Positions 10,652-45,339 of a stretch of 64,000 nt of DNA are shown one piece after another. Positions within the stretch are counted from its first letter, which is position 1. Each line of letters starts with the position of its first letter. The translations under genes and the position numbers were made by a program. Origin of the DNA: a virus (Duplodnaviria; Caudoviricetes); the IMG/VR virus record IMGVR_UViG_3300027710_000022, positions 11,076 to 75,075 of that record; one strand, written 5' to 3'. Under the pieces are notes generated by a model. It was not told the origin of the DNA, made no database searches, and saw only the letters and a list, made by a program, of their open reading frames with translations.

Positions 10652-12416
10652 ATATCTCTTCTTGACCATCCTGTTGGGGTTCTTGTGGTACCTCAGGATT
10701 AGGTTGTTGTACTTTTTCTTTTTTCTTCTTAGGAGGTAATCCGTGTTGAATGTCACCGTATTTTCCACCCTCATAACCAACCATAGTCGGTACTCTTTTT
10801 CCTTCGATTACGGTTAATCTATGAGACAAATCTTCATCCCACATTTGTTTACTAACTAAATAACCTAACGCTTCACCACCATCGGATAATGTTGGATTAT
10901 CAATTATTACATAGAAAGCATCTCCATTATCTGCAGAATAAGATTTAACGGCATATCTCTTACCTTGTTCATCTTCAGTTCTCATCATTTTTTCTTCTGA
11001 GAATCTATCATTATACTCTATCTTAGTTGTACCGTCCATTACCCATTCAAATGAACTGATGTGATAGATACCAAATAAGTGAGAAGATTTACTTTGGTAA
11101 ATTCTATAGTTGTCATCCTTCTGTCCTTTTCTAACAAGAACATAGTCTTTTTGCATGAAATCATTAACAAGATATTCAATACCTGGCTTCCCAATTTGTT
11201 TTAATTTCCTATCTAATTTTTCACGATATGGATAATCAGGAGGACTTGTTTTTAATATTGCGGTTAATAATTTACTATTTGAAATTCTTGATGTTGCATC
11301 ATGTAATTGCATCATCGTAATATAAGTCGTCTTTAATTCTGGTGTCATTGCATTCCAAGAATCGACTTCTTTAATTTTACCACCTACAGCAATATATTCT
11401 GTCATTCTCTGTGGTGTTTGTGCTGAAAATTCATTTGGATCACCAGGAGTTTCATTGATAACGTCCGTAACCTTTGCAGATTCTAATTCTTCTTGAGATA
11501 ATGCTCTCCATTCAAATTTATCTCTTTCACCATCTAATTGTGGCCAAGTACTAACAATAAAATCCCAACTCTTGGTTTCATCTCCATCATTAAACATTGA
11601 ACTTACAGTATAAGAACCGTAGTTGTTTATTTGGATTGCTGCCATATGAAATCTAGCCTCATTGGTATCATCACTTAAATAATTTCTATTATCATCAATA
11701 AGGAAATAGAATGTTTTCTTATCACTTCTTCTGTAGTAACCGTATTGATTGGTACCATTACCGTAAAGATAGTTTCCTTCATCGTCAGTAATTCTAACAT
11801 CTCCCCTCCATGTAACACACCAAGGTGAATTTATTCTACCGTTTCTTCTAAATTTAATGTACTGGTCTCTGTGTAAAGATTGGTAGTAATAACCCATCCT
11901 TTTTGCATGAGTCTCACTTAATACTTTATATACTCTTACACCACCTTTATTTATAATGCAATTCTCATCACTAAACCACATTGGTTTCGACGCCTCAATT
12001 TTTGCTACGTTTGGTTGGTTACCGTCTGACGCAAATATTGCATCAAGTTTAGCCTTTTCATCCTCAACATCGTTTTCCTTTTCTTCACCACCCATTTCAA
12101 ATTTACCAAACTCAACTAAAAAAGAAACTAAGTCTTTAAATTTAAAAACTTGTATTTGTTTTAAATCATTTAATGAATATTTCTGTTTGTCCGGAAATCT
12201 ACCGTCGTGTCTTTTTAAAAATCTTAAGACACCTGAATTCTCAATAGAAATTTGATTTTTAATGTTGGTGTGTCTATTAAAGACCTTTTCTCCTTGCTCG
12301 TCTGTTAACTCGGGAACCTCAGTTCTCCATTTAGTCATTAGTTCATTGAAAAAGGTTTTTTGATTTGCTTTTATCTCCTCAAAAACCATATCAAATATTA
12401 AATCATTAATCTTCAT
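10650..12416 (-). CDS. Large hypothetical protein
   Basis: 588-aa ORF; MKINDLIFDMVFEE start; two TATTTATA copies upstream on the minus strand (12421-12439). Confidence 0.75.
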   Translation of the reverse strand: MKINDLIFDMVFEEIKANQKTFFNELMTKWRTEVPELTDEQGEKVFNRHTNIKNQISIENSGVLRFLKRHDGRFPDKQKYSLNDLKQIQVFKFKDLVSFLVEFGKFEMGGEEKENDVEDEKAKLDAIFASDGNQPNVAKIEASKPMWFSDENCIINKGGVRVYKVLSETHAKRMGYYYQSLHRDQYIKFRRNGRINSPWCVTWRGDVRITDDEGNYLYGNGTNQYGYYRRSDKKTFYFLIDDNRNYLSDDTNEARFHMAAIQINNYGSYTVSSMFNDGDETKSWDFIVSTWPQLDGERDKFEWRALSQEELESAKVTDVINETPGDPNEFSAQTPQRMTEYIAVGGKIKEVDSWNAMTPELKTTYITMMQLHDATSRISNSKLLTAILKTSPPDYPYREKLDRKLKQIGKPGIEYLVNDFMQKDYVLVRKGQKDDNYRIYQSKSSHLFGIYHISSFEWVMDGTTKIEYNDRFSEEKMMRTEDEQGKRYAVKSYSADNGDAFYVIIDNPTLSDGGEALGYLVSKQMWDEDLSHRLTVIEGKRVPTMVGYEGGKYGDIQHGLPPKKKKEKVQQPNPEVPQEPQQDGQEEI

Positions 12417-31695: not shown

Positions 31696-33516
31696 ATGAA
31701 AGATAATACAAACCCAATTGACAGAATTAAATTAATGATGTCATATGATAATGAAAAAACTTTAAATGAAAATTTAAATGTTTTAAACTTAATAAGTGAA
31801 GATGAGTCAACTGAGGTTGGGGAACAATTCAGGAAAGAAGTTGCAAGTAGATTTAAAAATACCGCTACAGGTGCTAAGGAAACCGCTATAATTTCTGCAA
31901 TGGGTAAAGAATTTAAATTGGCAGATAATGTTATTGCAACAGCATTAACAAAAGACCTTACTCAATTAACTAAAGAACTTGAAGATGCGATAAAGTTGGA
32001 TTTGAAAAATGGAGTAAGAGTATCAACAACAAATACATTGGGGCCAGCAGCGAAAGAAGCCTCTAAATTAAAGGCAATGAAAGAAATGTCATTAAAAAGT
32101 AGTGAATTAAAGGCATCAGGAAAAAATATAACAACTAAAGAAATTGATGATATAGTTTTAAGAGCACAAACGGAATCTAAAGAGATGGCTAGAAAATTAG
32201 AAACTGGTGTTGTTAGTAAAGAAGGAAAAAAAGCTGCCAATCAAACAAAGAAAATTGCGGATTTAGAAGCAAAGATTAAACAATTAGAAACAGTTAAAAC
32301 ACCTCAACAAGCGGAAGCAGCAATTAAAAATGAGGTTAACATTACTATGACTCAGGGAGGTGCCGCAGGAACACACGCTGAAATGCAAGCAATTAAAGAA
32401 ATGGCACCGGAAGCTAAAGTGGTTGCTCAAGAATCCAAAGCAATAGTTGAAACAATGAAACCATCTAAATGGGAAAAATTCAAAAAAATTGCAGGTAGAT
32501 TAAGTCCAAAATATTGGATTATGTTAGGTTTAGCTGGTGTAGGTGGTTGGTATCTTTGGAAATTTTTTAAAGGTGGAACAACAAAACCAGGAGATCAATT
32601 ATTTGGTAAATGTTTAGATGATGTTATAGACGATAACGGAACAACGATTGTAAATACATCGGGTGGAGATCCAGTGGTACAGGTTAAAAATACAGGTAAT
32701 ACGGAATATGATCAAAAGGGTGGATTATGGTTTTACAACAATGGTAGAGTGTGGATGGTTGATGGGACTAAAAAAGGTAGATGGTCATGTAAAGGTAAAG
32801 AAACAGTAATTGCAGAACAAGGAGACGGTAATCCAAATACAGGTATTGGTAACATTAATATTACTTGGGATGGTGAATCGAGTCCGGTAACAACAGAACC
32901 GATAAAAACGGAACCAGTAAAAACGGATAATCCAAAATATCACGATTGTGCTTCAAAAGATTTTCCGTTTGAATTTGGATGTATTTCACCAAAAATTGCG
33001 GAAATACAAAAATGTTTAGGTATAACACCACAAAAAGGTTATTTTGGACCTAAGACTAAAAAAGGTTTAGAAGATTTACAATATAATTTATCAGGTGGTA
33101 TTACTAAAGAAACATATGATAAGATTATATCAGCTTGTAACCCAACAACTGGTTCTACAACTGGTACAACTACAGGGTCTACAACAGGTTCTACCACTTC
33201 AGTAACGGGTACAACTACAGGTTCTACAACTGGTAATACAACAACCGCACCAATAACACCTCCAGCAGTACCTGCTGAACCTGTATACGATAGAAACAGA
33301 TTACAAGAATTATTGGCTAGTAAAAATTTAGTTAAAAAACGTAATGGTGTTATTGTTAAATGGAAAGGTCCTGAATTAGAAGGTAACGACTATTACATCT
33401 TAGATAAATATTTGAAAGACCAAGGTTATATTCAAAAGAAACAAAGAGAAACTGGTGATAGAGACGATGAAGATGTAACAATGAAATATAAGTGGAAATT
33501 ACAAGGAGAAGAATAG
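31696..33516 (+). CDS. Probable virion protein with a TM helix, PG-binding-like motif and Thr/Gly/Ser-rich linker
   Basis: IDRIKLMMSY...LNE start; WIMLGLAGVGGWYLW; IQKCLGI...GYFGPKT; TTGSTTGTTTGSTT repeats. Confidence 0.65.
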   Translation: MKDNTNPIDRIKLMMSYDNEKTLNENLNVLNLISEDESTEVGEQFRKEVASRFKNTATGAKETAIISAMGKEFKLADNVIATALTKDLTQLTKELEDAIKLDLKNGVRVSTTNTLGPAAKEASKLKAMKEMSLKSSELKASGKNITTKEIDDIVLRAQTESKEMARKLETGVVSKEGKKAANQTKKIADLEAKIKQLETVKTPQQAEAAIKNEVNITMTQGGAAGTHAEMQAIKEMAPEAKVVAQESKAIVETMKPSKWEKFKKIAGRLSPKYWIMLGLAGVGGWYLWKFFKGGTTKPGDQLFGKCLDDVIDDNGTTIVNTSGGDPVVQVKNTGNTEYDQKGGLWFYNNGRVWMVDGTKKGRWSCKGKETVIAEQGDGNPNTGIGNINITWDGESSPVTTEPIKTEPVKTDNPKYHDCASKDFPFEFGCISPKIAEIQKCLGITPQKGYFGPKTKKGLEDLQYNLSGGITKETYDKIISACNPTTGSTTGTTTGSTTGSTTSVTGTTTGSTTGNTTTAPITPPAVPAEPVYDRNRLQELLASKNLVKKRNGVIVKWKGPELEGNDYYILDKYLKDQGYIQKKQRETGDRDDEDVTMKYKWKLQGEE

Positions 33517-33517
33517 T

Positions 33518-34162
33518 ATGAAAGATATTAAAAAAATAGTAAGTGAAAACCTCTCAAAGAAGCATTCTATAAACGAATCCTTTGAGAGGATTTTTCTAAA
33601 TGAAAATGATGAAGATAAATTCGGTTTAACCATACAATATTTGGGTAAATTGATAGATGAGGGATATGACAATGAACAAATAGAAAATGTAGTAAACGAA
33701 CAATTTGATTGGTTAAAAAAACTATTCACCCCAAATAAACAAAATCCACAAGATGCATCTACAAGAAGTGGTATTTTAGATAAAGTAGGTGGTGGAGCCA
33801 TTTCACAATTTAAAGAATATGCAATAACGACATTATTAAACCTAATAGGGTTTAAAGGTCCATTAGTGAGTGCAATGGCAACTGCAATGAGTGAAATGAC
33901 ATTAAGTGATTTAATTGCTGTCTTTAGAGATAAACAAAGTTGTTCATATCATGGTAGTACTGTTGCAGATGCATTATCAGAATCATTAGTGGTATATATT
34001 ATTTCATCAAGTACTGAAGAAGATTCAATGGCGGCAAATTTCTTAAGAAATACAGTATTTGAATACATAAAATCAAGTCAATTTGGTGAAATGTTAGCAA
34101 ATGCTGTTTGTAATGTTGCATACAAAACAAAATCAAGAATTATTTCAAACATTAATGAATAA
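33518..34162 (+). CDS. Hypothetical protein
   Basis: 214-aa ORF; MKDIKKIVSENL start. Confidence 0.7.
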   Translation: MKDIKKIVSENLSKKHSINESFERIFLNENDEDKFGLTIQYLGKLIDEGYDNEQIENVVNEQFDWLKKLFTPNKQNPQDASTRSGILDKVGGGAISQFKEYAITTLLNLIGFKGPLVSAMATAMSEMTLSDLIAVFRDKQSCSYHGSTVADALSESLVVYIISSSTEEDSMAANFLRNTVFEYIKSSQFGEMLANAVCNVAYKTKSRIISNINE

Positions 34163-34320
34163 TAAGATATTTATATGTAGAGTTTAATTGGTTTGGTCGC
34201 CATTAAACGATAATACTTATAAAACGAAAAGGAGGTGTTCTAAATCTCGACAAAGGGTCTTCGGACCTTTTGCTCGTTTATATGGGTACCAAATAAAAAA
34301 CCCATCCGAAGATGGGTTTA

Positions 34321-34730
34321 TGGTGGAGGTGACGGGACTCGAACCCGTGTCTTTCCTGTTCAACAATAAATGACTACACGTTTATTCAATTAGTTCACAA
34401 CTGACAAATATTTGGTTCCTATTTTGACATCGTTACCAACAACTGTGTCGAGTTCACTTTTGTTACGGTAGTCCTCTGAACGAGACCGTTTGTTTCTTTT
34501 TGGGTAGAAACCACACCTTAAGTACTTCTGTTCCTAGGTTATATGTACGTCGACCCGATTGTAGTTTCGCCTTAGGCTACTGCTACGTTAGAAGTTGCAA
34601 GAATACCTGCTACTTCCATGTTGTTGTAAACGTTGCCGTCTAAAATTTTCCACCGTAGATTTAAGTCATAGATGAAGTCTGACTACGTGCCACTTACCCC
34701 TGATACCTGAAATCAATGCCAGGCACCCCC
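34321..34730 (-). ncRNA. ssrA: tmRNA
   Basis: 5' GGGGGTG pairs with 3' CACCTCC-A-CCA including the G3.U70 Ala determinant; T-arm CGGG-TTCGAGT-CCCG; internal tag frame 34637-34572 (GNVYNNMEVAGILATSNVAVA*) after TTAGAC. Confidence 0.92.
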
Positions 34731-34749
34731 ATATTTTAAAGAACTTATA

Positions 34750-34781
34750 CAAATGTAGATGAAAAAGGGTTAAAAAACAAA
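34750..34781 (-). promoter_or_regulatory. Bacteroidota sigma70-type promoter for tmRNA
   Basis: TTTG (34778-81), N20, TACATTTG (34750-57) on the minus strand. Confidence 0.75.
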
Positions 34782-34814
34782 TTTTAACCCTTAAATTCCT
34801 ATATGTGTAATTAT

Positions 34815-35117
34815 TTATTTCTTAGCAGATGGTTTTCTTCCTTTACGAGCTTGATTTCCTTTAGTTGCGGTTACAACATCCTTAGATTGTTTAACAACTT
34901 TTTTTGCTGCTTCAACAACATCTTTAGATTCCTCAACCACTCTTTTTGCTCTTTCTTTAACTACTTTAGCAACTTCTTTAACTTCTGCTAGTTTTTCTTC
35001 AACCGCATCTGGAATGTTATTACCATCTTTGTCTTCGATTTTACCTGATTTCATTAGGAAAAATACTACAGCTCCAGCTACAACCAAAGCCAATAAAATT
35101 AAAAGTACTGTCATCAT
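34815..35117 (-). CDS. Small membrane-anchored Lys/Val-rich protein
   Basis: N-terminal TM helix, DKDGNNIPD motif, basic tail; TATTTATA at 35134-35141. Confidence 0.65.
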   Translation of the reverse strand: MMTVLLILLALVVAGAVVFFLMKSGKIEDKDGNNIPDAVEEKLAEVKEVAKVVKERAKRVVEESKDVVEAAKKVVKQSKDVVTATKGNQARKGRKPSAKK

Positions 35118-35153
35118 AATTGTTTGTTTTATATATAAATATCCGTTATTGTG

Positions 35154-35843
35154 CTAAAATCGATTAACCCTTAAAGGGAAGTGTTTCTCATATAATGCTT
35201 CAAAAAACAACTTATTTTTCTCCCATTGTTTATTAGTCATACCAATAGATTTGTGTGTTACCATTATTTTAGTGGTAACCCCAACTTTAATTCCATCTAA
35301 ATGGTTGTCAACACAAAATGGTAAATCATAAAAATGAAACCCTGTAAATTCTTCATTAAACTTATGTTTAATTCTACCTTTATGAACCATAATAAACAAT
35401 CCATCAACAATTACCACTTCTTTTGGTTTGTCACCAAATGATTGTTTTGAATAGTGATTTACATGTCTTTTACCTTCATGTTCATGACCCACAACACCAT
35501 ACATAGATTCTCTATCTTGCCACCACATTCCACTCATTAAGTTATCAGTACCTGCCAATCCTAAAATTCCATATTCAGGATTTTCTTCAAAAAGTCTAAC
35601 AACTTTTGGTGTAATGTTGGAAGTTTCTAAAATAAGATCATCATGCATAAACACAACAATATCATGTTCAGAATCTTGTAATCCTGTGTTATATATTTTA
35701 GGTAGAGAATCCACACCATCATTCTCATAAATTAATATTTGAGTTTTAGGGTGTGAAAACATTTTCTCAACGTGTTTTAAATAGACATCATCAATTTTAC
35801 GTGTTGAGATGACGACACTTATTGGTTCATTATATTTCGACAT
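35154..35843 (-). CDS. Glycosyltransferase family 2-like protein
   Basis: IYNTGL...IVVFMHDD...GILGLAG...VDGLFIMV...FHFYDLPFC. Confidence 0.8.
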   Translation of the reverse strand: MSKYNEPISVVISTRKIDDVYLKHVEKMFSHPKTQILIYENDGVDSLPKIYNTGLQDSEHDIVVFMHDDLILETSNITPKVVRLFEENPEYGILGLAGTDNLMSGMWWQDRESMYGVVGHEHEGKRHVNHYSKQSFGDKPKEVVIVDGLFIMVHKGRIKHKFNEEFTGFHFYDLPFCVDNHLDGIKVGVTTKIMVTHKSIGMTNKQWEKNKLFFEALYEKHFPLRVNRF

Positions 35844-36579
35844 GTGTTGCGATTATTTCACCATAAACTTCTTGAAGGTCTATGATTATTGGTTTATTAA
35901 TTGGACTATATCCAGGATTACATATTGACGCATTTACAAATAATGTTTTATTACCGATCTCAACACCGTAACCTTCGTGAATATGACCAAATACACTTAC
36001 TAATGGATTTATTTCTTCTATTCTATTTCGTAACAACTCACAACCAACATTCGTATTTGGTTGTCGCCAATTATTAACTAAATCTCCATATCCATTTGGT
36101 GGTCCGTGTGTAATTAACACGTCGGTATCGGTTGGGATGTTATTCCATTTTTCTAACAACTCTTCACCCATTCTCGGTAAATTAAAAGCCCAATCATAAA
36201 ACCATGGTTGCCAAGGACTACCATAAAATTTAATAGGTCTTGAAAATTCATCACTTTCAATTGTTATAAAACTATCCTCTAAATAAGTTACATCAGATTG
36301 AGATAAATTTTCGGGTGACATTAAATTATGTAACCAATCATAATCACCTTTATGGTGAGGTTGATTAACTCTTTCAAAACAATGGTCGTGATTACCTGAT
36401 ATGAATATTTTTTCATCAAATCCTTTAATGTTTTGAAACCAATGAATAAATTCGGTAACATCCCTTTCTCCACCTCGATTAGAAATATCACCCGCATGTA
36501 TTAGCACATCACCAGATGGTATTTCGTGGGCCATACCACTATGTAAACTATGTGTGTCAGATATACAAACGATTCTCAT
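35830..36579 (-). CDS. Calcineurin-like metallophosphoesterase
   Basis: CISDTH, HAGDIS, SGNHD, THGPP, FGHIHEG motifs. Confidence 0.92.
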   Translation of the reverse strand: MRIVCISDTHSLHSGMAHEIPSGDVLIHAGDISNRGGERDVTEFIHWFQNIKGFDEKIFISGNHDHCFERVNQPHHKGDYDWLHNLMSPENLSQSDVTYLEDSFITIESDEFSRPIKFYGSPWQPWFYDWAFNLPRMGEELLEKWNNIPTDTDVLITHGPPNGYGDLVNNWRQPNTNVGCELLRNRIEEINPLVSVFGHIHEGYGVEIGNKTLFVNASICNPGYSPINKPIIIDLQEVYGEIIATHVEI

Positions 36580-36613
36580 AATATCAAATATAAGTAAAAT
36601 TTATTAAAATGCA

Positions 36614-36640
36614 TAAAAAAAGTCAGAATAAATCTGACTA
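36614..36640 (-). terminator. Intrinsic terminator closing the large ncRNA unit
   Basis: Minus strand AGTCAGA-TTTAT-TCTGACT followed by a T-tract. Confidence 0.75.
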
Positions 36641-36649
36641 ATTTTTTTT

Positions 36650-37513
36650 GGGCCGAACGGTTTTAAAACGTTCCAATTCCACCACTTTGTTTTACTAAAC
36701 AAAGAAAAAAAACACTGAGAATACATGTTTTAACAATTGACTTGGGGACATTATTTGATTCTTCCCTTTTCCACTACCTTTTGAGTAGTACCAATCAGCG
36801 GCGGTCAATTAGATTAACCAATCCTTAAGTCGTTATATACTCTTTTAATACTCATTACTCATCAAAGATGCCTCCCTGATTCAACCTTGCGGGTTTAGAG
36901 AACTTTTTTAAAAATCACATTGGGCTTGAGACCCTTTGTGGCCGTGAACCCCTCACGACTATGTAGCCACCTGTCTACAACGACTGACGAACACTTTTTC
37001 TTGTATGATTTTAAGTTGTTAAACCAAAATTAACAAAATTTAGTTTCCGAATTTGGGAAAGTAGTGGTTCGTCGACCAGCCAAGCCACCTTTTGAGCGAC
37101 TCGATACTAAACTACTCTCTGTAACATCCCTGCTACCATATTTTTGGACCCCTTCAAAACTAAACTCTTGGTAGAGTTTAATAAAGGATGATAACGACAC
37201 CACTCGTACTTCACCATACCTTTCGGTTTTAAGATTCCCATCATATTGAATCACGCAATTGTAAAGTCGGATAACGATACTTCTCACAATAACTCTATGG
37301 ATTATTCTTATTGGTGTTCCCACCTCAACCAAACAACTCGGATTGCTTGGTCGTCAAACCACTTTCCCTAAAGTGTTACCCTCAGTACTTAAGGTTTAAC
37401 GATACTCCACTTGCCTACTCGAGATCCATTACTGAATCCGCAACTCACCCCAACCAAGGGTTTGTCACTTTATCCCACTTTCATGGTTTATTTTAATCGA
37501 CCATAGGCGGCCA
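36650..37513 (-). ncRNA. Large (~860 nt) structured ncRNA, GOLLD-like candidate
   Basis: No credible ORF; own promoter and terminator; ends pair (GGCCG/CGGCC); many hairpins including GNRA loops and two identical UCAAAAG loops; next to a tRNA array. The family assignment is inference. Confidence 0.75.
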
Positions 37514-37551
37514 ATATTTTTAAATCAAAGAACTATTTCTTGTTTCTTTTA

Positions 37552-37582
37552 CAAAGATAAGAAAACTTTTTTAAAAAACAAA
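37552..37582 (-). promoter_or_regulatory. Bacteroidota sigma70-type promoter for the large ncRNA
   Basis: TTTG (37579-82), N19, TATCTTTG (37552-59); AGTTCTTTGA at 37525-34 just downstream. Confidence 0.75.
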
Positions 37583-37589
37583 ATATTTT

Positions 37590-37823
37590 TTAATTATTTT
37601 CTACTTTATTTTTTTTCAATGTTTTTTTAGAAGATACTTTCTCAGTTGTCTTCTTTGTCTTGTACTCAGGATTTTTATAAAGTTTATATTCGGTCTTTGG
37701 TGCAAATGACCAATAACCACCCTTAACTCTTAAATCCGCTTCATTGTCATCTACTCTCAGTACCTCACCAATTTCATGACCCTTACTTGCTTTAATTAAT
37801 TTAATACATTTCATATTTTCCAT
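37590..37823 (-). CDS. Small basic hypothetical protein
   Basis: 77-aa ORF. Confidence 0.6.
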   Translation of the reverse strand: MENMKCIKLIKASKGHEIGEVLRVDDNEADLRVKGGYWSFAPKTEYKLYKNPEYKTKKTTEKVSSKKTLKKNKVENN

Positions 37824-37864
37824 GTTTATAATAAAATATAAGAAATAAAAACCATAAAAAAAAA

Positions 37865-38692
37865 TTAAAGTACATTTCTTTTAAATTCCTTATTAACTAA
37901 ATTTGGTTCATCGTCATAACCAAAGAAGATACATTCTTTTTTAAACATTTCACATACGGTCAAATACTCATTAAGTGTAATTTCATCATAATAGTAATTC
38001 GGATTTTTTGAATGGTGATATCCTGACAAAGAATCCTTAAAATAGGTATAGAAAACCATAAATGAATTATTCATACCGTTTGGAAAATCTTTTAAAAAAT
38101 AAAATGGTTTTATATAGGGTTTATTTAATATGCCAAAATTTTTTAAATTACTTTCACTTAATAAATTGTTATTAATTTTTACAATATCATTAATATCCTC
38201 TATTCTAAAAAATCTATAATTATAATTTTCAAAACGTTTATCATATTCTTTTCTAAAATTAAAATTTAAATTTGATATAATTTCATTACCCAATGGGTCA
38301 TTTAGAAAAAAAGAACTTTGTGGTAAAAAATGAGTATCATTTGAACTTTCAATAAAAGAGTTATATTTTTGAATAAATTTTGATAAGGAGTCTATCTCAA
38401 GATCCTCAAATGTTTTTAACGACTCTTCTGTTCGTTCTAACTCTTTTTTTGTTAGTTTATTTAACATATTAAGGTCATATAATCTTTTCAACTTTACATA
38501 CCAATCGTATGACGAAAAAAATCTATCGATAGGGTTTCTTATAAATAAGAAACAATTTTTTTCTAATTCTTCATTAACAAAATTAAACTCGATTGAATTT
38601 AATTGTAATATATCTGATAAAGTTGAGTAAATTATTGTATTTCCAGATTTATGGGGGATAATAAAACTTGTATTATATTCAGGTACATTCAT
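37865..38692 (-). CDS. Sulfotransferase family 2-like protein
   Basis: PHKSGNT (5'-PSB-like), FLFIRNPIDRFFSSY (3'-PB-like), HFLPQ, terminal FFGY. Confidence 0.7.
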   Translation of the reverse strand: MNVPEYNTSFIIPHKSGNTIIYSTLSDILQLNSIEFNFVNEELEKNCFLFIRNPIDRFFSSYDWYVKLKRLYDLNMLNKLTKKELERTEESLKTFEDLEIDSLSKFIQKYNSFIESSNDTHFLPQSSFFLNDPLGNEIISNLNFNFRKEYDKRFENYNYRFFRIEDINDIVKINNNLLSESNLKNFGILNKPYIKPFYFLKDFPNGMNNSFMVFYTYFKDSLSGYHHSKNPNYYYDEITLNEYLTVCEMFKKECIFFGYDDEPNLVNKEFKRNVL

Positions 38693-38735
38693 ATGTGTAT
38701 TATAAATACCATTAGGTTAACAAGAACAATTTTTG

Positions 38736-38886
38736 CTGTAGTGGGTGGGTTCGAACCACCAAGTGGAGATTCAACCGATAACATGACGCTTGCAAGCTGG
38801 TGGTCTACCCCCTAATATTATCAATCTGTTTCTTTGTCCACACCCCCGAGACAGGAGGGTACGTTTGCCAATTTCGTCACACTACA
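38736..38886 (-). tRNA. tRNA-Asp(GTC)-like RNA with an 82-nt extended variable region
   Basis: Acceptor TGTAGTG/CACTACA, G73, D-arm ACG/CGT, anticodon arm CCCTC-CTGTCTC-GGGGG, T-arm GGTGG-TTCGAAC-CCACC. Confidence 0.65.
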
Positions 38887-39079
38887 ATATAACACCCTTT
38901 TATCAGCCGAAGCCTCACATAACCTTAGTGTGGAACCACAGGTAGGTGTCATGAATGATTACCACTGAGAATGTAGATTTTCACTAACTCGATTTAGCGG
39001 TCTCTATGGTAATTTTTTTGATGGATGAAAAACATCTATTTTTCTTGCGGATTTCCATCGGAATCCCATAATTTAAAAG

Positions 39080-39153
39080 TGGACCAGATAGGAATCGAAC
39101 CTATTACCTTCACATTATGAGTGTGCCGCTCTAACCGAGTGAGCTACAAGTCC
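39080..39153 (-). tRNA. tRNA-Met or Ile2 (CAT)
   Basis: Cloverleaf with loop CT-CAT-AA; elongator Met versus lysidine Ile2 cannot be resolved by eye. Confidence 0.85.
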
Positions 39154-39224
39154 AATTAATAGGTGGGGCTTAATTATTTAACTCTTTACCACCATTAAGT
39201 CTTTAATGCTTTAGACACCTATCG

Positions 39225-39298
39225 TGATCCCGTTTGGATTCGAACCAAAGACCCACATCTTAGAAGGATGTTGCTCTATCCAACTGAGCTACGGAACC
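39225..39298 (-). tRNA. tRNA-Arg(TCT)
   Basis: GGTTCCG/CGGGATC acceptor; ACATC-CT TCT AA-GATGT. Confidence 0.92.
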
Positions 39299-39414
39299 AA
39301 AGTAATGTAATGTCTGTACGGTTTGTATCTAATCCACACCTTTGTACGTGTTTCAAAAGTTTCCATTTCATACGTAGCGTCTGTTCCGTCACTTATTTCT
39401 AAGTCATTACATTG

Positions 39415-39499
39415 TACCTGGGGCGGGACTTGAACCCGCACGGGACTTTCGCCCCAACAGATTTTAAGTCTGTCATGTATACCATTTCATCACCCAGGC
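39415..39499 (-). tRNA. tRNA-Leu(TAA)
   Basis: GCCTGGG/CCCAGGT; ACAGA-CT TAA AA-TCTGT; long variable arm with a GAAA loop. Confidence 0.92.
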
Positions 39500-39616
39500 A
39501 TTTGTTTTTCCAATACATCAAAGAACTATAATCAAATATAAGAATAAAAAATGATATAAAAAAACCCCGAACATTTTTTTTAGTTTGTTCGGGGGAATTA
39601 ACTGAACTAAAAATGT

Positions 39617-40066
39617 TTATTTTACTTTATACGATAACCCAAGTCCTAATGTAAAATCACTACCAACTAAATTACCGATAGTCCATAAATTTATGACATT
39701 ACTTGGTCTAAGTGGATTGTACATTATAAGAAAATTTGGTTTATTACCATTAATTGTTGGTTGTAACCCAAATCCAATAATTGCTTTGTCCTCTTTTAAT
39801 TCTCTAAGAACACCAAACTTCATATTATCAGATAAAGTTCCTGTATTGGTGTTGACACCAGGAGGAAGTGTTATTCCACCATTTTGGCTTTTCAATTCAC
39901 CATATGGAAGACCTGCATAAAACCCCCAACCTTTTTTCATAAAACCACCTGTTATATAACCATCTGATGGGCCACCTTTTCGAGTGGCGGTTATAAACCA
40001 CTCTTGCCCATTTGCCACGACTTCTACTCCCAAAAGTAACGTTAGCACTAAAAAAATTTTTTTCAT
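39617..40066 (-). CDS. Secreted/outer-membrane beta-barrel-like protein
   Basis: Signal peptide MKKIFLVLTLLLGVEVVANGQ; alternating beta strands; ends LGLSYKVK. Confidence 0.6.
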   Translation of the reverse strand: MKKIFLVLTLLLGVEVVANGQEWFITATRKGGPSDGYITGGFMKKGWGFYAGLPYGELKSQNGGITLPPGVNTNTGTLSDNMKFGVLRELKEDKAIIGFGLQPTINGNKPNFLIMYNPLRPSNVINLWTIGNLVGSDFTLGLGLSYKVK

Positions 40067-40365
40067 TTTTTTGATTTGGACAAGGAGTCTTCCGTTGCCC
40101 ATTTTTCTTTTAACTTTGCTACCTTCTCAATCTTTACAATTTTACCATTCAATTTGGTAATCTCGTCCGCGATTTCTTTGGTTTTGACGGCCCTGCTAGC
40201 GAAATTTTCATCTGTTACTTCAACCCATTCAATTTTTCTTTCCAGAGATTTAATCTCTTTCTTTATTTGATTGACTGACTTTCTTTCGTCTGAAAGACTT
40301 GGGTCGATAGATGATGTTAATGTATTAAAAAATAGCATTAACGATAGTGTGATTTTATCTATCAT
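40063..40365 (-). CDS. Coiled-coil hypothetical protein with a hydrophobic N-terminus
   Basis: 100 aa; TATTTATA at 40370-40377. Confidence 0.6.
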   Translation of the reverse strand: MIDKITLSLMLFFNTLTSSIDPSLSDERKSVNQIKKEIKSLERKIEWVEVTDENFASRAVKTKEIADEITKLNGKIVKIEKVAKLKEKWATEDSLSKSKK

Positions 40366-40443
40366 ATATTATAAATATTAATAATATGATAAATATACAG
40401 AATAAAATATTGTAAATCAATATCTTAATATAAAAAAATTTTG

Positions 40444-40515
40444 TACTCGGTACGGGATTCGAACCCGTGCAACCACCGTGAAAGGGTGGTGACCTAACCA
40501 CTAGTCGAACCGAGC
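40444..40515 (-). tRNA. tRNA-Glu(TTC)
   Basis: GCTCGGT/ACCGAGT; CCACC-CT TTC AC-GGTGG. Confidence 0.92.
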
Positions 40516-40751
40516 AAGTAATCACTCAAATGGGTATTTGTTATAATATCACAATTGTTGCACTATACTTTGGTTAATTACTCCGTCTGTATCCAACAGC
40601 TTTATGTTGGCTTATAATTGGCTACTTTATTATAACTCACATTTTTATTTGTGATTAATTAAGAACTAACATTGCTATCAGGGTTTAAATGGTTCACAGA
40701 TAAATCCGGAATCACCACCTACCGATTTTACGGTATCTTAGTTAATTCTTG

Positions 40752-40836
40752 CAGAGAGTTAGGGATTCGAACCCCAGATACCTTTCAGTATGCCAGTTTT
40801 CAAGACTGGTGCCATCAACCACTCGGCCAACTCTCT
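40752..40836 (-). tRNA. tRNA-Ser(TGA)
   Basis: AGAGAGT/ACTCTCT, G73; CCAGT-CT TGA AA-ACTGG; long variable arm. Confidence 0.92.
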
Positions 40837-40923
40837 AAAATTGATTCTAACTCACCTTAAGTTGCACCATCCGAGTCACTGCTCTGGTTGACAAAGTCCT
40901 CGTTGAGTTAGTCTCAAAAAGTT

Positions 40924-41133
40924 ACAGGTTTTTCGTACCATCTATGTACATCATGACCGAAGTTTGGTTGGATTTACATCACGTCTCAGCAAACTTTACT
41001 CGGTGGTTACATTTTCGTATTGGGGTAATTATTCCCGACTTATAGTAACTCTACCCTCACCGCCCTACCTCGCGAGTCAGACGGATCTTTTGGGATTCAT
41101 AGACAGTGGGGTTACACCACCGTCGTCACCTGT
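40924..41133 (-). ncRNA. Unassigned ~210-nt structured RNA
   Basis: Closed by ACAGGT/ACCTGT; internal helices GACGGTGG/CCACTGTC, GCGA tetraloop, GTTAC/GTAAC, ACCGA/TCGGT. Confidence 0.5.
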
Positions 41134-41135
41134 TG

Positions 41136-41209
41136 AGCCCAAACTCAGATTCGAACTGAGGACCTACTGATTACAAATCAGTTGCTCTGGCCAGCTGAGC
41201 TATTCGGGC
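41136..41209 (-). tRNA. tRNA-Thr(TGT)
   Basis: GCCCGAA/TTTGGGC; ACTGA-TT TGT AA-TCAGT. Confidence 0.92.
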
Positions 41210-41343
41210 TACTATGGAAAACAGAAGATGGGGGTGTGGACATCTGTTTTTATGATTGGCGTTTCTCGCTATTCGCTAGCCCCGTTAAATCCCAATCAAC
41301 CATTTGTTTTACAAAGATAAAAAATAATTTTAGATATTCCAAA

Positions 41344-42177
41344 TTATTTATTATCTTTTATATATTTTTTTAATATTTCAAATTCATTTTTAACAAATTC
41401 GGGGTCATAACTTCCCATATCTTTTATTATATATGGTTCATATCCCATTTTTTTAATCTCATTAATTTTAATATTGTCACGATTTTTAACTTGTTTAAGT
41501 GAATGTTTTTTAGTTATTTTTTCATAATGCCATTTACCATTCCACATAATTGCTAATTTATAGTCATTAATTATTACATCGGCATCCCATCCATTAAACA
41601 TATTTTCATTAGATAAAACATCGTTATATTCTTTTTTACAAAGTTCAAATAATAAAATTTCATTTTTACTTCTTTTACCTTGTTTTGATTTTTTACCACC
41701 CGCAGATCCCGAGCATTTGTATGAACAAAATCTTCCTTTTAAATTTTCTTTACGTTCAAAATGTTTACCACAGTTATCACATCTACGTATTGTATATTTT
41801 ATTTCTTTTTTGGGTCTCGGAGGTTTGTTTTTTAACGAAACAGATATTTTAATTCTTGTTTCTTCATTAAAATCTCTACTATTTGAACATTTATAAGAAC
41901 AATGTTTTGGGTAATCCCCTATTGAAAATATATGTTCAGTTACATTTATTTTATATTCTTTATCACATTTTACACAATTTAATATCTTTTCATTTTTAAT
42001 TTGGTTTTTTGTAATTAACGATTTTTCAATCATTAATTTTTTATTTGGGTTCATAGAACAATTAGTCACGTGAGCTCCTGCTTGTTGTTTCTTTTCAAAA
42101 ACAAACGTTTCATTACAAAACTTACATTTATATTCCATCATACTCATTAATATAATTAATAAATATGACAAAATCAA
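41344..42177 (-). CDS. Putative free-standing homing endonuclease (multiple zinc ribbons plus PD-(D/E)xK-like domain) inside the tRNA array
   Basis: CKFC, CVKC...CSYKCS, CDNC...FCSYKCS; C-terminal WDADVIINDYKLAIMWNGKWHY...RDNIK. The true start may be ~42141-42147. Confidence 0.65.
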   Translation of the reverse strand: MILSYLLIILMSMMEYKCKFCNETFVFEKKQQAGAHVTNCSMNPNKKLMIEKSLITKNQIKNEKILNCVKCDKEYKINVTEHIFSIGDYPKHCSYKCSNSRDFNEETRIKISVSLKNKPPRPKKEIKYTIRRCDNCGKHFERKENLKGRFCSYKCSGSAGGKKSKQGKRSKNEILLFELCKKEYNDVLSNENMFNGWDADVIINDYKLAIMWNGKWHYEKITKKHSLKQVKNRDNIKINEIKKMGYEPYIIKDMGSYDPEFVKNEFEILKKYIKDNK

Positions 42178-42179
42178 AG

Positions 42180-42266
42180 TTGCGGGTGCAGGATTCGAAC
42201 CTGACGTGTCGTTTTACCGACGTGTGCTTATGAGACACCTGAGTTTGACCACTACTCTAACCCGCA
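42180..42266 (-). tRNA. tRNA-Met(CAT) with an atypical long variable arm
   Basis: TGCGGGT/ACCCGCA; loop CT CAT AA; 18-nt variable region with a GTCG/CGAC stem. Confidence 0.75.
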
Positions 42267-42271
42267 AAATG

Positions 42272-42342
42272 TTGTCCCTCGTGGATTCGAACCACAACTA
42301 GATGGACCAAAACCACCTGTACTACCGTTATACTAAAGGACA
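42272..42342 (-). tRNA. tRNA-Gln(TTG)
   Basis: TGTCCTT/AGGGACA; GGTGG-TT TTG GT-CCATC. Confidence 0.92.
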
Positions 42343-42347
42343 ATATG

Positions 42348-42427
42348 TACCCAAGGTCGGACTCGAACCGACACGCCTTTCGACACGGTTTCTAAGACCG
42401 CTGTGTATACCATTCCACCACTCGGGT
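42348..42427 (-). tRNA. tRNA-Leu(TAG)
   Basis: ACCCGAG/CTTGGGT; GCGGT-CT TAG AA-ACCGT; variable arm with a GAAA loop. Confidence 0.92.
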
Positions 42428-42434
42428 ATTATTG

Positions 42435-42506
42435 CACGCATGTAAGGACTCGAACCTTCATCTTCGGTTTTGGAGACCGAAATTCTACCAATTGAACTAC
42501 ACACGC
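42435..42506 (-). tRNA. tRNA-Trp(CCA)
   Basis: TCGGT-CT CCA AA-ACCGA; G73; 5' end ambiguous by 2 nt (42506 or 42508). Confidence 0.88.
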
Positions 42507-42512
42507 GTTTTG

Positions 42513-42584
42513 CGTTGATGATAGGACTCGAACCTATAATCGTTCGGTTAACAGCCGAAAGCTTCACCATTAAGCTACATCAAC
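42513..42584 (-). tRNA. tRNA-Asn(GTT)
   Basis: GTTGATG/CATCAAC, G73; TTCGG-CT GTT AA-CCGAA. Confidence 0.92.
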
Positions 42585-42589
42585 AACTG

Positions 42590-42664
42590 TAGGGTAAAGA
42601 GGACTCGAACCTCCATGATACCTTGCTCCCAAAGCAAGTGACTTAGCCATTAGTCCATTACCCT
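42590..42664 (-). tRNA. tRNA-Pro(TGG)
   Basis: AGGGTAA/TTACCCT; CTTGC-TT TGG GA-GCAAG. Confidence 0.92.
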
Positions 42665-42671
42665 ATTTGTA

Positions 42672-42711
42672 TAAAACAAAAAACCTCGAGATTTTTAAGT
42701 CCCGAGGTTTT
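42672..42711 (-). terminator. Intrinsic terminator immediately upstream of the first tRNA (candidate attenuator)
   Basis: Minus strand AAAACCTCGGGA/TCTCGAGGTTTT 12-bp stem followed by TTGTTTT. Confidence 0.75.
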
Positions 42712-42734
42712 CTAATATTTTAAGTTAAACTAAA

Positions 42735-42830
42735 TTAACCAACATCAGTATCATCGAGACATATGTGCATAGGTTGCTCATTCCAATTTAGTTGGTTTGA
42801 AAACGATGTCATGTTTGTTAATTGTCTCAT
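42735..42830 (-). CDS. Putative 31-aa leader peptide, not in the ORF track
   Basis: MRQLTNMTSFSNQLNWNEQPMHICLDDTDVG*; lies between promoter TATCTTTG (42858-65) and the terminator. Confidence 0.55.
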   Translation of the reverse strand: MRQLTNMTSFSNQLNWNEQPMHICLDDTDVG

Positions 42831-42932
42831 TGAATTTAGTTTTATCTTTTTCTTTTACAAAGATAACAATAAATATGTATATAATCAAGAAAAGTTAATA
42901 AAGATTTTTTTTGACTAGTTGCCGGAACGTGA

Positions 42933-42940
42933 TATTTATA
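42933..42940 (+). promoter_or_regulatory. TATTTATA element (putative phage late promoter); representative copy heading the surface locus
   Basis: The same 8-mer lies ~5-35 nt upstream of about 20 start codons in coding-strand orientation (e.g. 102, 1043, 2100, 3778, 6570, 7229, 8213, 9740, 20396, 29127, 30160, 30441, 51683, 61373); this copy is further from its ATG. Confidence 0.6.
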
Positions 42941-43014
42941 AGGGACAAATAAAAATTATCTCTCTCCTGACTGTTTTCATATGAAAATTGCGGGAGCATT
43001 TTAAAAAATTTCAT

Positions 43015-43665
43015 ATGGAAAGAATTAGAACATTATCACTTAGTTTAGGCAATAAATTAGCCCACGCATTTTTCTTATTAGTTGGGGTTTGGATTGTATT
43101 CGCTCTATGCTTCCAATTATTCTTCGTTTATTTAGAATTTTCCGGTAAACATGAACTACAAAGAAATGTTGTAAATTGGATTGAATGGAGAATCGATGGT
43201 ACATTCAAAAATAATCCTGAAAATATATGGTACGATGCCGACGACCATATTTGGGTTGAAAGTGTAACCAATGAGGTTAAAATCGGTAAATTAGCTGGTA
43301 ATAGAAATTTAGCATTTGGAGTTAAAAACATCTTAGAAGAGTTTTTACAAGAAAAGGGCTACGATTTATCGGCATCATCTCCGTACAAATTACAAGTACA
43401 AATTGTTTATTTAGATGTTCTTACAACAAAGAAGAACATATCTGTTTTCCATTCTGGTGAGGAGGAAGTGGTTATTAGACTGAAGGGAACATTGACAAAA
43501 GACGGTAAAAAGGAAAAAGAACTTATTGTTGAGGAGTCGTCATCTGAGGTATCTATGTCTACTCTAATTGTTGATGAAGGAGGGTCGTTTAATCAAACTT
43601 CTTTAAGTAACGCACTCAAAAAAGCCAGTGAAAAACTAATAAATAAATTAATGGTTAAAAAATAA
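43015..43665 (+). CDS. Membrane-anchored protein with a CsgG/LptE-like alpha/beta domain
   Basis: N-terminal TM helix; C-terminal FNQTSLSNALKKASEKL resembles FNQSTISIATKKALD of ORF 50907. Confidence 0.5.
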   Translation: MERIRTLSLSLGNKLAHAFFLLVGVWIVFALCFQLFFVYLEFSGKHELQRNVVNWIEWRIDGTFKNNPENIWYDADDHIWVESVTNEVKIGKLAGNRNLAFGVKNILEEFLQEKGYDLSASSPYKLQVQIVYLDVLTTKKNISVFHSGEEEVVIRLKGTLTKDGKKEKELIVEESSSEVSMSTLIVDEGGSFNQTSLSNALKKASEKLINKLMVKK

Positions 43666-43671
43666 AAAAAA

Positions 43672-45339
43672 ATGAGAAATCTATTAATAATAATCGGGGT
43701 AATAACACTATCCCTAATTACGTTTAAGTCAAATGCACAATTAACCGTTAACCAATCGGTAACTCCAACAACGGGGTTAAAAGTTGGAGATACAATTTCA
43801 GTAAAGTATACGGTTGCAAGAGGTACAACCACACCTCGTTATTTTTGGTTAAGATACCAATATAATAACAAAGCATTAGCATATGTTTCAACTACATTCT
43901 CACAAGGAACATCGGTTCAGACATTCTATACAGGTTGGTCGTCATATAAATTCACTGCGAGTACTGCGAATAGTATCACCGCTAAAGATTTATATGCTCA
44001 ATATTTGGTATCACCTTGGGGTTATGCCGCTAACGCAGATTGGAGTGTTGGTCAATTAACTGTTCAAAGAACTGATGCATCAATCAACGGAGACATTGCA
44101 ACTCAAAAATATGTAATTAAGGATTTGGGTGCATATACTGATATTCACAAATTAGACTTATCATATTCAATTGACGCAACAAGTGCCAACATTACACCAA
44201 TAACAACCGACCCAGGTACAATGTCTTTAACAAATGTAACGGGTAACACATCTCAATTTAAAGTAAGAGTTTTATTCCCAACAGGATACGATATTACCGC
44301 TCATAGTGTTTCATTAATACCATTAACAACCGCAGGTGAAGTTAACTGGACGGCACAAGCAATTGCTTCTAAGGTATTGGATGCAAGTGGTGAGGCAATA
44401 TTTACAACTGAAACAAAAGTGGGAGACACATTTGCAGTATTTGTAAATGCAGCATTACAAAAAACGTTTATGAATAACATTATAACTGTATCTGACGCAT
44501 ATAGAGCATTTTTAGGTATTTCACAAGTGGATATATCAGGTACACAAACATATTTCACAAGACCAATATTACAAAAGAAAGTTGGTTTAATTACAAAAGA
44601 TAAAACAACATTTAGTGAAAGTGATTCATATAATTTATTTGCACATGTAATGGGAATAGATGTTAAGTCATCTGCTATGATTCCATCAAACGCAGCACCT
44701 GTAAATGGTGTTGTAAATTATAAATGGTATAATGGTTTATTAAATCAAAGTTGGTTAGATGGGACACCGACATATAAAACTAAGGTAACATCTTCAAATC
44801 AAGCGGTGGACATGGTATTTGCATGGGGTGGTGATTTAGATTGGTCTCATTCGTCAGATCCTGACGTAATTGCCTCGAGAATAGCTTCGGGAAATTATGC
44901 AAATTCAATTAATCCATCTGAAAATGTTATTAAAACAATGTCAACAACAACAATGTCATACACACCAACAGTTGAAAAGGCGACATTGAGTTTGAATTCC
45001 ACAATTGCCAATAATAAAGTTGTATTAACAGGAACATTAACTAAAGAAGGTTTGGCTGGTTTAGAAGTTATATTACAATATGATAATTCTAAATTGACTT
45101 TTGATAATATTGCATTTGATGCTGGCGCCAATGTAACTAACTTCTCAACAAATGAGGACGGTAGATTAACATTTGGTTCAATGGACCAAACAAAAACTGC
45201 AAGAATTAAAGTAGGTACACCTTATAAATTAACATTTATACCAAAACAAACTTTAACGAATACAGCTGGTTTATTTTATACTGTTTTATCAGATGCCGTT
45301 GATGGTGGTGGAAACAAAATAAATTTAATAGTAGAATAG
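43672..45339 (+). CDS. Secreted surface protein with dockerin-like and C-terminal cohesin-like segments
   Basis: Signal peptide; ITVSDAY; AGLEVILQYDNSKLTF (cohesin-like xxQFxLxYDxxxL). Confidence 0.6.
   Translation: MRNLLIIIGVITLSLITFKSNAQLTVNQSVTPTTGLKVGDTISVKYTVARGTTTPRYFWLRYQYNNKALAYVSTTFSQGTSVQTFYTGWSSYKFTASTANSITAKDLYAQYLVSPWGYAANADWSVGQLTVQRTDASINGDIATQKYVIKDLGAYTDIHKLDLSYSIDATSANITPITTDPGTMSLTNVTGNTSQFKVRVLFPTGYDITAHSVSLIPLTTAGEVNWTAQAIASKVLDASGEAIFTTETKVGDTFAVFVNAALQKTFMNNIITVSDAYRAFLGISQVDISGTQTYFTRPILQKKVGLITKDKTTFSESDSYNLFAHVMGIDVKSSAMIPSNAAPVNGVVNYKWYNGLLNQSWLDGTPTYKTKVTSSNQAVDMVFAWGGDLDWSHSSDPDVIASRIASGNYANSINPSENVIKTMSTTTMSYTPTVEKATLSLNSTIANNKVVLTGTLTKEGLAGLEVILQYDNSKLTFDNIAFDAGANVTNFSTNEDGRLTFGSMDQTKTARIKVGTPYKLTFIPKQTLTNTAGLFYTVLSDAVDGGGNKINLIVE

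Follow-up and report, generated by a model that had tools for sequence, protein, structure and literature searches.

In a 64,000-nucleotide stretch of DNA from a phage of the Caudoviricetes (IMG/VR record IMGVR_UViG_3300027710_000022, positions 11,076 to 75,075), hereafter the window, the minus strand carries a short open reading frame (ORF) and an intrinsic terminator directly ahead of six tRNA genes. The codons of this ORF correspond to the tRNAs behind the terminator, and in related phages codons and tRNAs change together. The leader is encoded by the phage and probably acts as a ribosome-mediated (leader-peptide) transcription attenuator, gating the six-tRNA array at 42664-42179. Such an attenuator had been proposed in a preliminary description of this DNA, and the open frame, the frame-specific codon match, the tracking of the array in three classes of leader and the lack of promoter room all argue for this function.

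The locus begins with a promoter at 42888-42858 (minus strand), located by motif position, in which TTG (42888-42886) and the box TATCTTTG (42865-42858) are separated by a 20-nt spacer. Its spacing and sequence match the Bacteroidota -33/-7 type, and transcription is predicted to start near 42852. This promoter block is conserved among relatives, and the TATCTTTG box also occurs upstream of the GOLLD RNA gene and of tRNA-Thr. The leader ORF, as called, occupies 42830-42735 (minus strand) and consists of 31 codons (31 amino acids) followed by TAA. Within it, the codon match and the co-variation with the array define a sensor of codons 2-21 (42827-42768, minus strand), in which codons 12-21 encode Asn, Gln, Leu (CTA), Asn, Trp, Asn, Glu, Gln, Pro and Met (core NQLNWNEQPM). 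The intrinsic terminator (42711-42672, minus strand) is composed of a 5' arm (42711-42700), a loop, a 3' arm (42691-42680) and a T run; the whole terminator-like hairpin at 42714-42677 has 15 pairs, 5 of them G-C, and is followed by the T run. The gene upstream of the leader (42988-43665) is divergent, and therefore the terminator serves only the short leader transcript.

The array behind the terminator (42664-42179, minus strand; ARAGORN and Rfam) encodes tRNA-Pro(TGG) at 42664-42589, Asn(GTT), Trp(CCA), Leu(TAG), Gln(TTG) and an 88-nt tRNA with the anticodon CAT at 42266-42179. These genes are spaced 3-6 nt apart, and the first begins 12 nt beyond the end of the terminator stem. The gap between the terminator and the start of tRNA-Pro is too short to hold a promoter; a separate promoter at this position, which the preliminary description had raised as a counter-possibility, is absent from the window locus. 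Otherwise, the promoter box, the 31-codon ORF, the terminator and the six tRNAs are all present where that description had placed them on the minus strand, and codons 12-21 read as it had quoted them. The 88-nt CAU tRNA has a long, class II-like variable arm, which is unusual for Met or Ile2, and its Rfam tRNA score is only 42 bits.

Codon content of the leader and composition of its array

To place the codon match on a background, we drew on 42 long ORFs of the window, which gave 14,346 ten-codon windows, and applied strict wobble rules. Eight of the ten codons at positions 12-21 can be decoded by the six adjacent tRNAs (nine if CCU is read by UGG), whereas the background windows have a mean of 1.66 and a maximum of 7. 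The comparison with random ten-codon windows envisaged in the preliminary description thus places the leader above every background window; the nine of ten given there is obtained with the loose CCU-UGG pairing, and strict wobble gives eight. For codons 2-21, 18 of 20 are matched by all 12 tRNAs of the window (background maximum 17), while the tail codons 22-31 show no match (0/10). The codon match is above chance. The previously noted match of codons 2-11 to tRNAs farther down the array is included in this count and stands as a match, but these distal tRNAs have promoters of their own, which qualifies the attenuator reading for them.

Relatives were found by means of the divergent neighbour gene (80 IMG/VR loci, on contigs of up to 335 kb) and by three DNA patterns, each derived from another part of the leader, which led to further loci in IMG/VR and in metagenomes, giving four search keys altogether. 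After removal of chance matches, about 40 distinct leaders remained, all on related uncultured phage contigs. The promoter, 7 nt of the untranslated region (UTR) with the first three codons, the GTCTCGA segment, the stop-codon hairpin and the terminator are kept in all of them, and tRNAs follow every true leader that has enough downstream sequence. In records of cultured phages, the resemblance to the window is limited to tRNAs and includes no leader; in 185,579 cellular species genomes, the 111 pattern matches contained no real leader. Across 40 distinct versions, the ORF stays open and is 31-34 codons long. Its sensor region contains no stops in frame 0, in contrast to 23 and 30 in the other frames, and its indels are multiples of three. 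Variation in the sensor columns is mostly nonsynonymous, and the peptide itself is not conserved.

Within this leader family, the middle of the ORF occurs in two forms. Class 1, to which the window belongs, stands upstream of Pro, Asn, Trp, Leu(UAG) and Gln, and class 2, with the core FIICSKWADERA, stands upstream of Ala(UGC), Ile, Phe, Lys, Trp, Arg(ACG), Cys and His. The first gene of the class 2 array is a degenerate tRNA-Ala(UGC) (L099:4982-5052, plus strand, and other class 2 loci) with a G3-U70 pair, two acceptor-stem mismatches and a reduced D arm; it was missed by ARAGORN at default settings and found by Rfam and relaxed ARAGORN. The class 2 sensor covers 8/8 tRNAs of its array, compared with a maximum of 7 in 13,108 background windows. 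When the pairings of leaders and arrays were shuffled among 27 loci, 217 ± 16 matches were obtained versus 307 observed (0/10,000 shuffles), and shuffling within class 1 alone gave P = 1e-4. The codon-array match amounts to 55% in frame versus 27% and 21% in the other frames. Moreover, 16 of the 19 anticodon types of the proximal arrays never occur without a cognate sensor codon.

The tracking extends to single tRNAs. A CTA or CTG codon is present exactly where the array has tRNA-Leu(UAG), and its codon position is 8, 14 or 19 depending on the sub-lineage. On the neighbour-protein tree, the CTR codon and tRNA-Leu(UAG) agree in 30/30 rows and change jointly in at least four places, one of which divides L162 from L116, whose neighbour proteins are nearly identical. 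Similarly, the sole class 1 leader with TGC (L113) has gained tRNA-Cys, and the sole class 1 leader with CGT (L115) has gained tRNA-Arg(ACG). Classes 1 and 2 are interleaved on the neighbour-protein tree; therefore, leader and array travel together as a module.

A third class emerged from an unbiased scan of each ORF of 12-45 codons lying at most 300 nt upstream of each tRNA cluster in the loci collected up to that point, in which the known leader was not used. The top-ranked candidate was a leader of 35-36 codons (L161:4155-4477, minus strand; also L096, L148, L188, L213 and L226) that shares the architecture and has an unrelated N-terminal sequence. Its array comprises 12 tRNAs, namely Leu(UAA), Arg(UCU), Pro, Asn, Leu(UAG), Tyr, Met, Val, Thr, Gly, Gln and Ser, and 19-25 of its 34-35 codons match them. 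In the 3 × 3 table of sensors and arrays, the diagonal lies at 2.7, 2.1 and 1.9 times the background for classes 1, 2 and 3, respectively, and the off-diagonal values are 0.2-0.8 times the background, except where array 1 is a subset of array 3. Class 2 and class 3 leaders co-occur in the same genomes and score only 0.5 and 0.2 times the background against each other's array. Genome-wide codon adaptation is thus ruled out, because the two leaders share a genome yet each matches its own array only.

Two leaders, L126 (3887-4066, minus strand) and L182, are hybrids with a class 1/2 start and sensor and a class 3-like tail end (DINKG). In both, ATGTCTCGA is kept with its TCTCGA segment in another reading frame, and the stop-codon hairpin is made from different sequence. 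Codon 24 varies among TGT, AGT and GGT (Cys, Ser and Gly), with GT kept. The tail is thus constrained as RNA and not as peptide. A functional or arrest peptide and a RiPP precursor were considered and rejected, on the grounds that sensor variation is mostly nonsynonymous and that the tail motif persists in another frame.

Alternative pairings and the proposed switch

Four segments of the leader have alternative partners. Segment 1 (42833-42823, minus strand) runs from the final 3 nt of the 5' UTR through the start codon into codons 2-3 and can pair, by folding, with segment 2 over 10 bp. Segment 2 (42761-42751, minus strand; folding and motif conservation) is TGTCTCGATGA, with the core GTCTCGA at 42760-42754 in codons 24-26; its alternative partners are segment 1 and the 5' arm of the terminator, and it is similar to the terminator 3' arm. 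Segment 3 is the terminator 5' arm, to whose region TCGGGAC (42705-42699) belongs, and segment 4 is the 3' arm. Between segments 2 and 3 lies hairpin H (42748-42712, minus strand; folding), which carries the stop codon (42737-42735) in its 5' strand and sits within the 2:3 helix.

The 178-nt leader folds at -40.2 kcal/mol (z = -4.4 versus shuffles), and both the minimum free energy and the centroid structures contain the 1:2 helix (42833-42823 with 42761-42751), hairpin H and the terminator. When the terminator 3' arm is removed, a GUCUCGA:UCGGGAC helix is predicted around H, in agreement with the antiterminator put forward in the preliminary description; the terminator and the antiterminator, which it had suggested folding against each other, are both predicted. 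The energies are -7.3 kcal/mol for 1:2, -8.9 for H, -15.0 for 3:4, -18.1 for 2:3 with H, and -31.2 for 1:2 with H and 3:4. For the terminator, 100% of cells are paired in 43 sequences, and two pairs are compensated on both sides. The stem of hairpin H is kept with few compensated pairs, while its loop varies in length and sequence. In class 3, the ORF contributes the pairing segment UGUUCGG and the two terminator arms contribute CCGAACA (5' arm) and UGUUCGGG (3' arm), and the helix between codons 3-8 and codons 25-30 has two compensated pairs. Judged from these segments, class 3 appears to repeat the three-helix design with different sequences, which amounts to covariation at the level of whole segments.

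From this anatomy, we infer that the ORF is translated and that ribosomes stalling in it regulate read-through into the tRNAs. The first 178 nt made from the host-type promoter, starting near 42852, would contain the 31-codon ORF and the four pairing segments, and a ribosome would load before segment 2 has been transcribed. A fast-decoding ribosome would move past segment 2 and, on reaching the stop codon, melt H during the synthesis of segments 3 and 4, and the terminator would form. Without a ribosome, 1:2 would form and the terminator would follow as well; in either case, the terminated transcript would end 6-13 nt ahead of tRNA-Pro. In contrast, if a cognate charged tRNA is scarce, the ribosome would wait at whichever sensor codon needs it, within the 61-nt loop that separates segments 1 and 2, and hold these two segments apart. 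The freed segment 2 would then pair with segment 3 around H, the terminator would not form, and the polymerase would read into the tRNAs. The outcome would be negative feedback on the supply of exactly the tRNAs listed in the leader, with their scarcity as the trigger. The geometry fits this model, because the matched codons stop at codon 21, just short of where a stalled ribosome would cover segment 2, and because the footprint of a ribosome at the stop codon ends approximately 10 nt short of the terminator 5' arm.

Beyond the window locus, and with somewhat less confidence, we favour the view that every tRNA block in this giant-phage lineage is an autonomous self-tuning module. Each leader would hold approximately one codon per tRNA, transcription would open when any of these tRNAs is limiting, leader and array would be exchanged together, and the codon list would be re-tuned upon the gain or loss of a single tRNA.

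Several observations weigh against the attenuator reading. With respect to the codons, CCT fits the anticodon UGG only loosely and has no strict cognate, and the coverage test for class 1 alone gives P = 0.057. The exceptions to the tracking are one-way, with codons retained after loss of the tRNA (Asn in L224; Asn and Trp in L056; Ile, Phe and Lys in L151, L195 and L219). The loci are related to one another, and raw counts therefore overstate their independence. Segments 1 and 2 formed part of two of the search patterns; segment 1 is also invariant in 15 sequences not selected on it. With respect to the helices, 1:2 never varies in classes 1 and 2 and hence shows no covariation. The 2:3 helix is 98-99% paired in these classes, and its changes are only one-sided (wobble); of what the preliminary description expected to find in homologous arrays, the conserved ORF frame and the tracking codons were found, and the antiterminator pairing was found with wobble changes only. 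When the first 10 codons are masked, the 5' arm pairs into the ORF in 46/49 leaders versus 190/490 shuffled controls, but the latter figure means that this G+C-rich arm pairs in 39% of shuffled sequences too. The antitermination conformer is approximately 13 kcal/mol less stable than the termination conformer, and the switch must therefore be kinetic. While its A site is at any of codons 9-19, a ribosome leaves both segment 1 and segment 2 uncovered, so that the model needs steric exclusion of a helix closing around the ribosome. Finally, in class 3 the terminator and the tRNAs are separated by a second promoter, which is degenerate in L119, L148 and L188, and in the window tRNA-Thr and the genes after it have their own TTTG-N20-TATCTTTG promoter (41343-41312), which places the distal tRNAs outside this control.

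Evidence from RNA consists of assembled Logan contigs, which are of low depth, represent small shares and are uninformative on ends, strand and level, and in which uncovered stretches have no meaning. Metatranscriptome contigs of 211-489 nt from three studies span the stretch from the leader ORF over the terminator into tRNA-Pro, and none of them reaches across the promoter. As evidence of expression, they are a weak hint, and possible DNA carry-over counts against them.

Competing explanations

The same parts could operate by another logic, in which smooth translation promotes read-through (feed-forward) or the position of the ribosome governs precursor processing or stability. The tracking of the array by the codons shows coupling to decoding and not the sign of the response, stability favours the terminator conformer over the antiterminator, and the 2:3 helix has no double compensations within classes; all three leave space for such a logic. 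However, a ribosome at the stop codon cannot block the terminator, since its footprint falls approximately 10 nt short of the 5' arm, and it melts the hairpin H that the 2:3 helix needs. Moreover, the end of the matched codons at codon 21 is what is expected if stalls must spare segment 2, and the hairpin with its T run is a canonical intrinsic terminator. We consider this explanation unlikely.

Alternatively, the ORF and terminator might form a self-contained small gene for a micro-protein or a dual-function small RNA, with the tRNAs transcribed by leak and the codon likeness reflecting phage codon usage. The unit does have its own promoter and a strong terminator of its own, and the leader RNAs that classical attenuators release on termination can have effects in trans (PMC6614838). 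However, the sensor peptide is not conserved and varies mostly at nonsynonymous positions, and the tail motif is kept in another reading frame. Codon usage also fails to account for leaders 2 and 3, which in one genome match only their own adjacent arrays, or for a codon set that follows gains and losses of single tRNAs, and the tRNAs would be left without a promoter of their own. A small gene of this kind is quite improbable.

A further explanation is that a protein or RNA factor, for instance a phage or host antiterminator binding hairpin H or segment 2, sets the level of read-through. H and its flanks are conserved well beyond coding needs, and a boxA-like GTTCTTTGA after other promoters of the tRNA region suggests Nus-type antitermination nearby. 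This leader contains no boxA-like motif, however, and the open frame with in-frame codons that track the array would be left unexplained, which makes control by such a factor very unlikely. As for a chance ORF in AT-rich DNA beside an ordinary terminator, several sensor codons are indeed frequent in such DNA, but no background window reaches the observed match, the ORF is conserved, and there are three array-specific sensor classes; we regard this explanation as already refuted.

Neighbouring elements, related systems and significance

In the window, only the six-tRNA array, and perhaps also the inserted ORF at 41344-42177, lies behind the attenuator. This ORF (minus strand) encodes a Cys-rich protein of about 265-277 amino acids between the array and tRNA-Thr and has no Pfam match; a Pfam search of the neighbouring ORFs gave nothing relevant. 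Because relatives have only approximately 200 nt at this place, the ORF looks inserted and may be a mobile, endonuclease-like gene. A short ORF after the promoter box at 41319-41312, ahead of tRNA-Thr, was considered as a further leader and set aside, its codon match being unconvincing. From tRNA-Leu(UAA) onward, a terminator (39594-39560), an TATATTTG promoter (39540-39533) and the boxA-like GTTCTTTGA precede the genes. The elements at 39594-39520 (minus strand) equal the 3' part of the class 3 cassette of relatives, and the class 3 leader ORF is absent here. The G+C-rich spacers between tRNA-Thr, Ser and Glu (40870-41133, minus strand, and others) contain no ORF on the transcribed strand, and an Rfam search of the tRNA spacers gave nothing significant (sX4 at 28 bits, under the threshold).

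A full-length GOLLD RNA (36712-37119, minus strand; Rfam RF02032, 309.6 bits, model positions 1-416) lies approximately 5 kb downstream of the tRNA region, and a TATCTTTG box is present near it at 37559-37552. A phage tmRNA (34321-34730, minus strand; ARAGORN, Rfam 82.5 bits) encodes a 21-residue tag; this ribosome-rescue RNA adjoins a system that is proposed to act via ribosome stalling.

Amino-acid-operon attenuators sense the availability of charged tRNA through the speed of the ribosome, and the ilv and thr leaders mix codons of several amino acids. Like the element described here, the trpL, hisL, leuL, pheL, thrL and ilvGMEDA leaders combine a promoter, a short ORF containing regulatory codons and, immediately ahead of the genes under control, an intrinsic terminator, and their attenuators use three mutually exclusive helices, 1:2, 2:3 and 3:4, which in our case are predicted. 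The general principle of attenuation is outlined in PMC1183508. The phage leader differs from the classical ones in that the regulated genes are tRNAs instead of biosynthetic enzymes, and in that its sensor has approximately 1-3 codons for each of 6-12 tRNAs, in contrast to runs of one or few. Furthermore, the sensor is located in the loop between segments 1 and 2, whereas in classical leaders it lies inside segment 1, and the element is phage-encoded with a Bacteroidota-type promoter, unlike classical amino-acid leaders. None of the Rfam leader families (Trp_leader, His_leader, Leu_leader and Thr_leader) matched at E ≤ 1 in window positions 33000-44000, and in the relative L099 a His_leader match of 22.2 bits stayed below the gathering score of 49.

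In Escherichia coli, the pheST (pheM) leader uses a leader peptide with cognate codons to adjust phenylalanyl-tRNA synthetase. Like the phage leader, it tunes a component of the decoding machinery and not an amino acid; in pheST this is a cellular synthetase for one amino acid, whereas here it is a set of viral tRNA genes. The multivalent ilv and thr leaders and the pheST leader are nearest in logic to the proposed control. T-box riboswitches likewise sense the status of tRNA and set an antiterminator against an intrinsic terminator. However, a T-box binds one uncharged tRNA directly through a specifier codon and the T-box sequence without translation, in contrast to the many-codon frame of the phage leader, and no Rfam T-box match was found in window positions 33000-44000.

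The nearest published inducible tRNA array that we found is the trn operon (tRNA L-array) of Anabaena sp. PCC 7120, which is accessory and horizontally mobile, stays silent by default and is induced by impaired translation (PMC8421152). Its control involves direct repeats in the promoter and the repressor TrcR, and no leader, attenuator or terminator is mentioned for it (PMC8421152, PMC10272220). The Anabaena array is thus controlled at the promoter, in contrast to the terminator-based anatomy of the phage locus. In full-text literature searches, we found no published account of leader-peptide or attenuator control of tRNA genes.

If these readings are true, leader-peptide attenuation of tRNA genes would be seen here for the first time, and the scope of classical attenuation would widen from amino-acid operons to the tRNA genes themselves. 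The self-contained element of approximately 180 nt could be used as a natural sensor of several tRNAs or to report tRNA depletion in Bacteroidota. For the phage, it would be a ready-made sensor of host tRNA loss, for example through host shut-off or anticodon nucleases. The control and purpose of phage tRNAs are debated, and the reasons proposed for carrying them include codon bias, the need to replace host tRNAs that have been degraded, and evasion of defences that cleave tRNAs; a leader that measures decoding speed for its own tRNAs would show that their supply is driven by demand, block by block.

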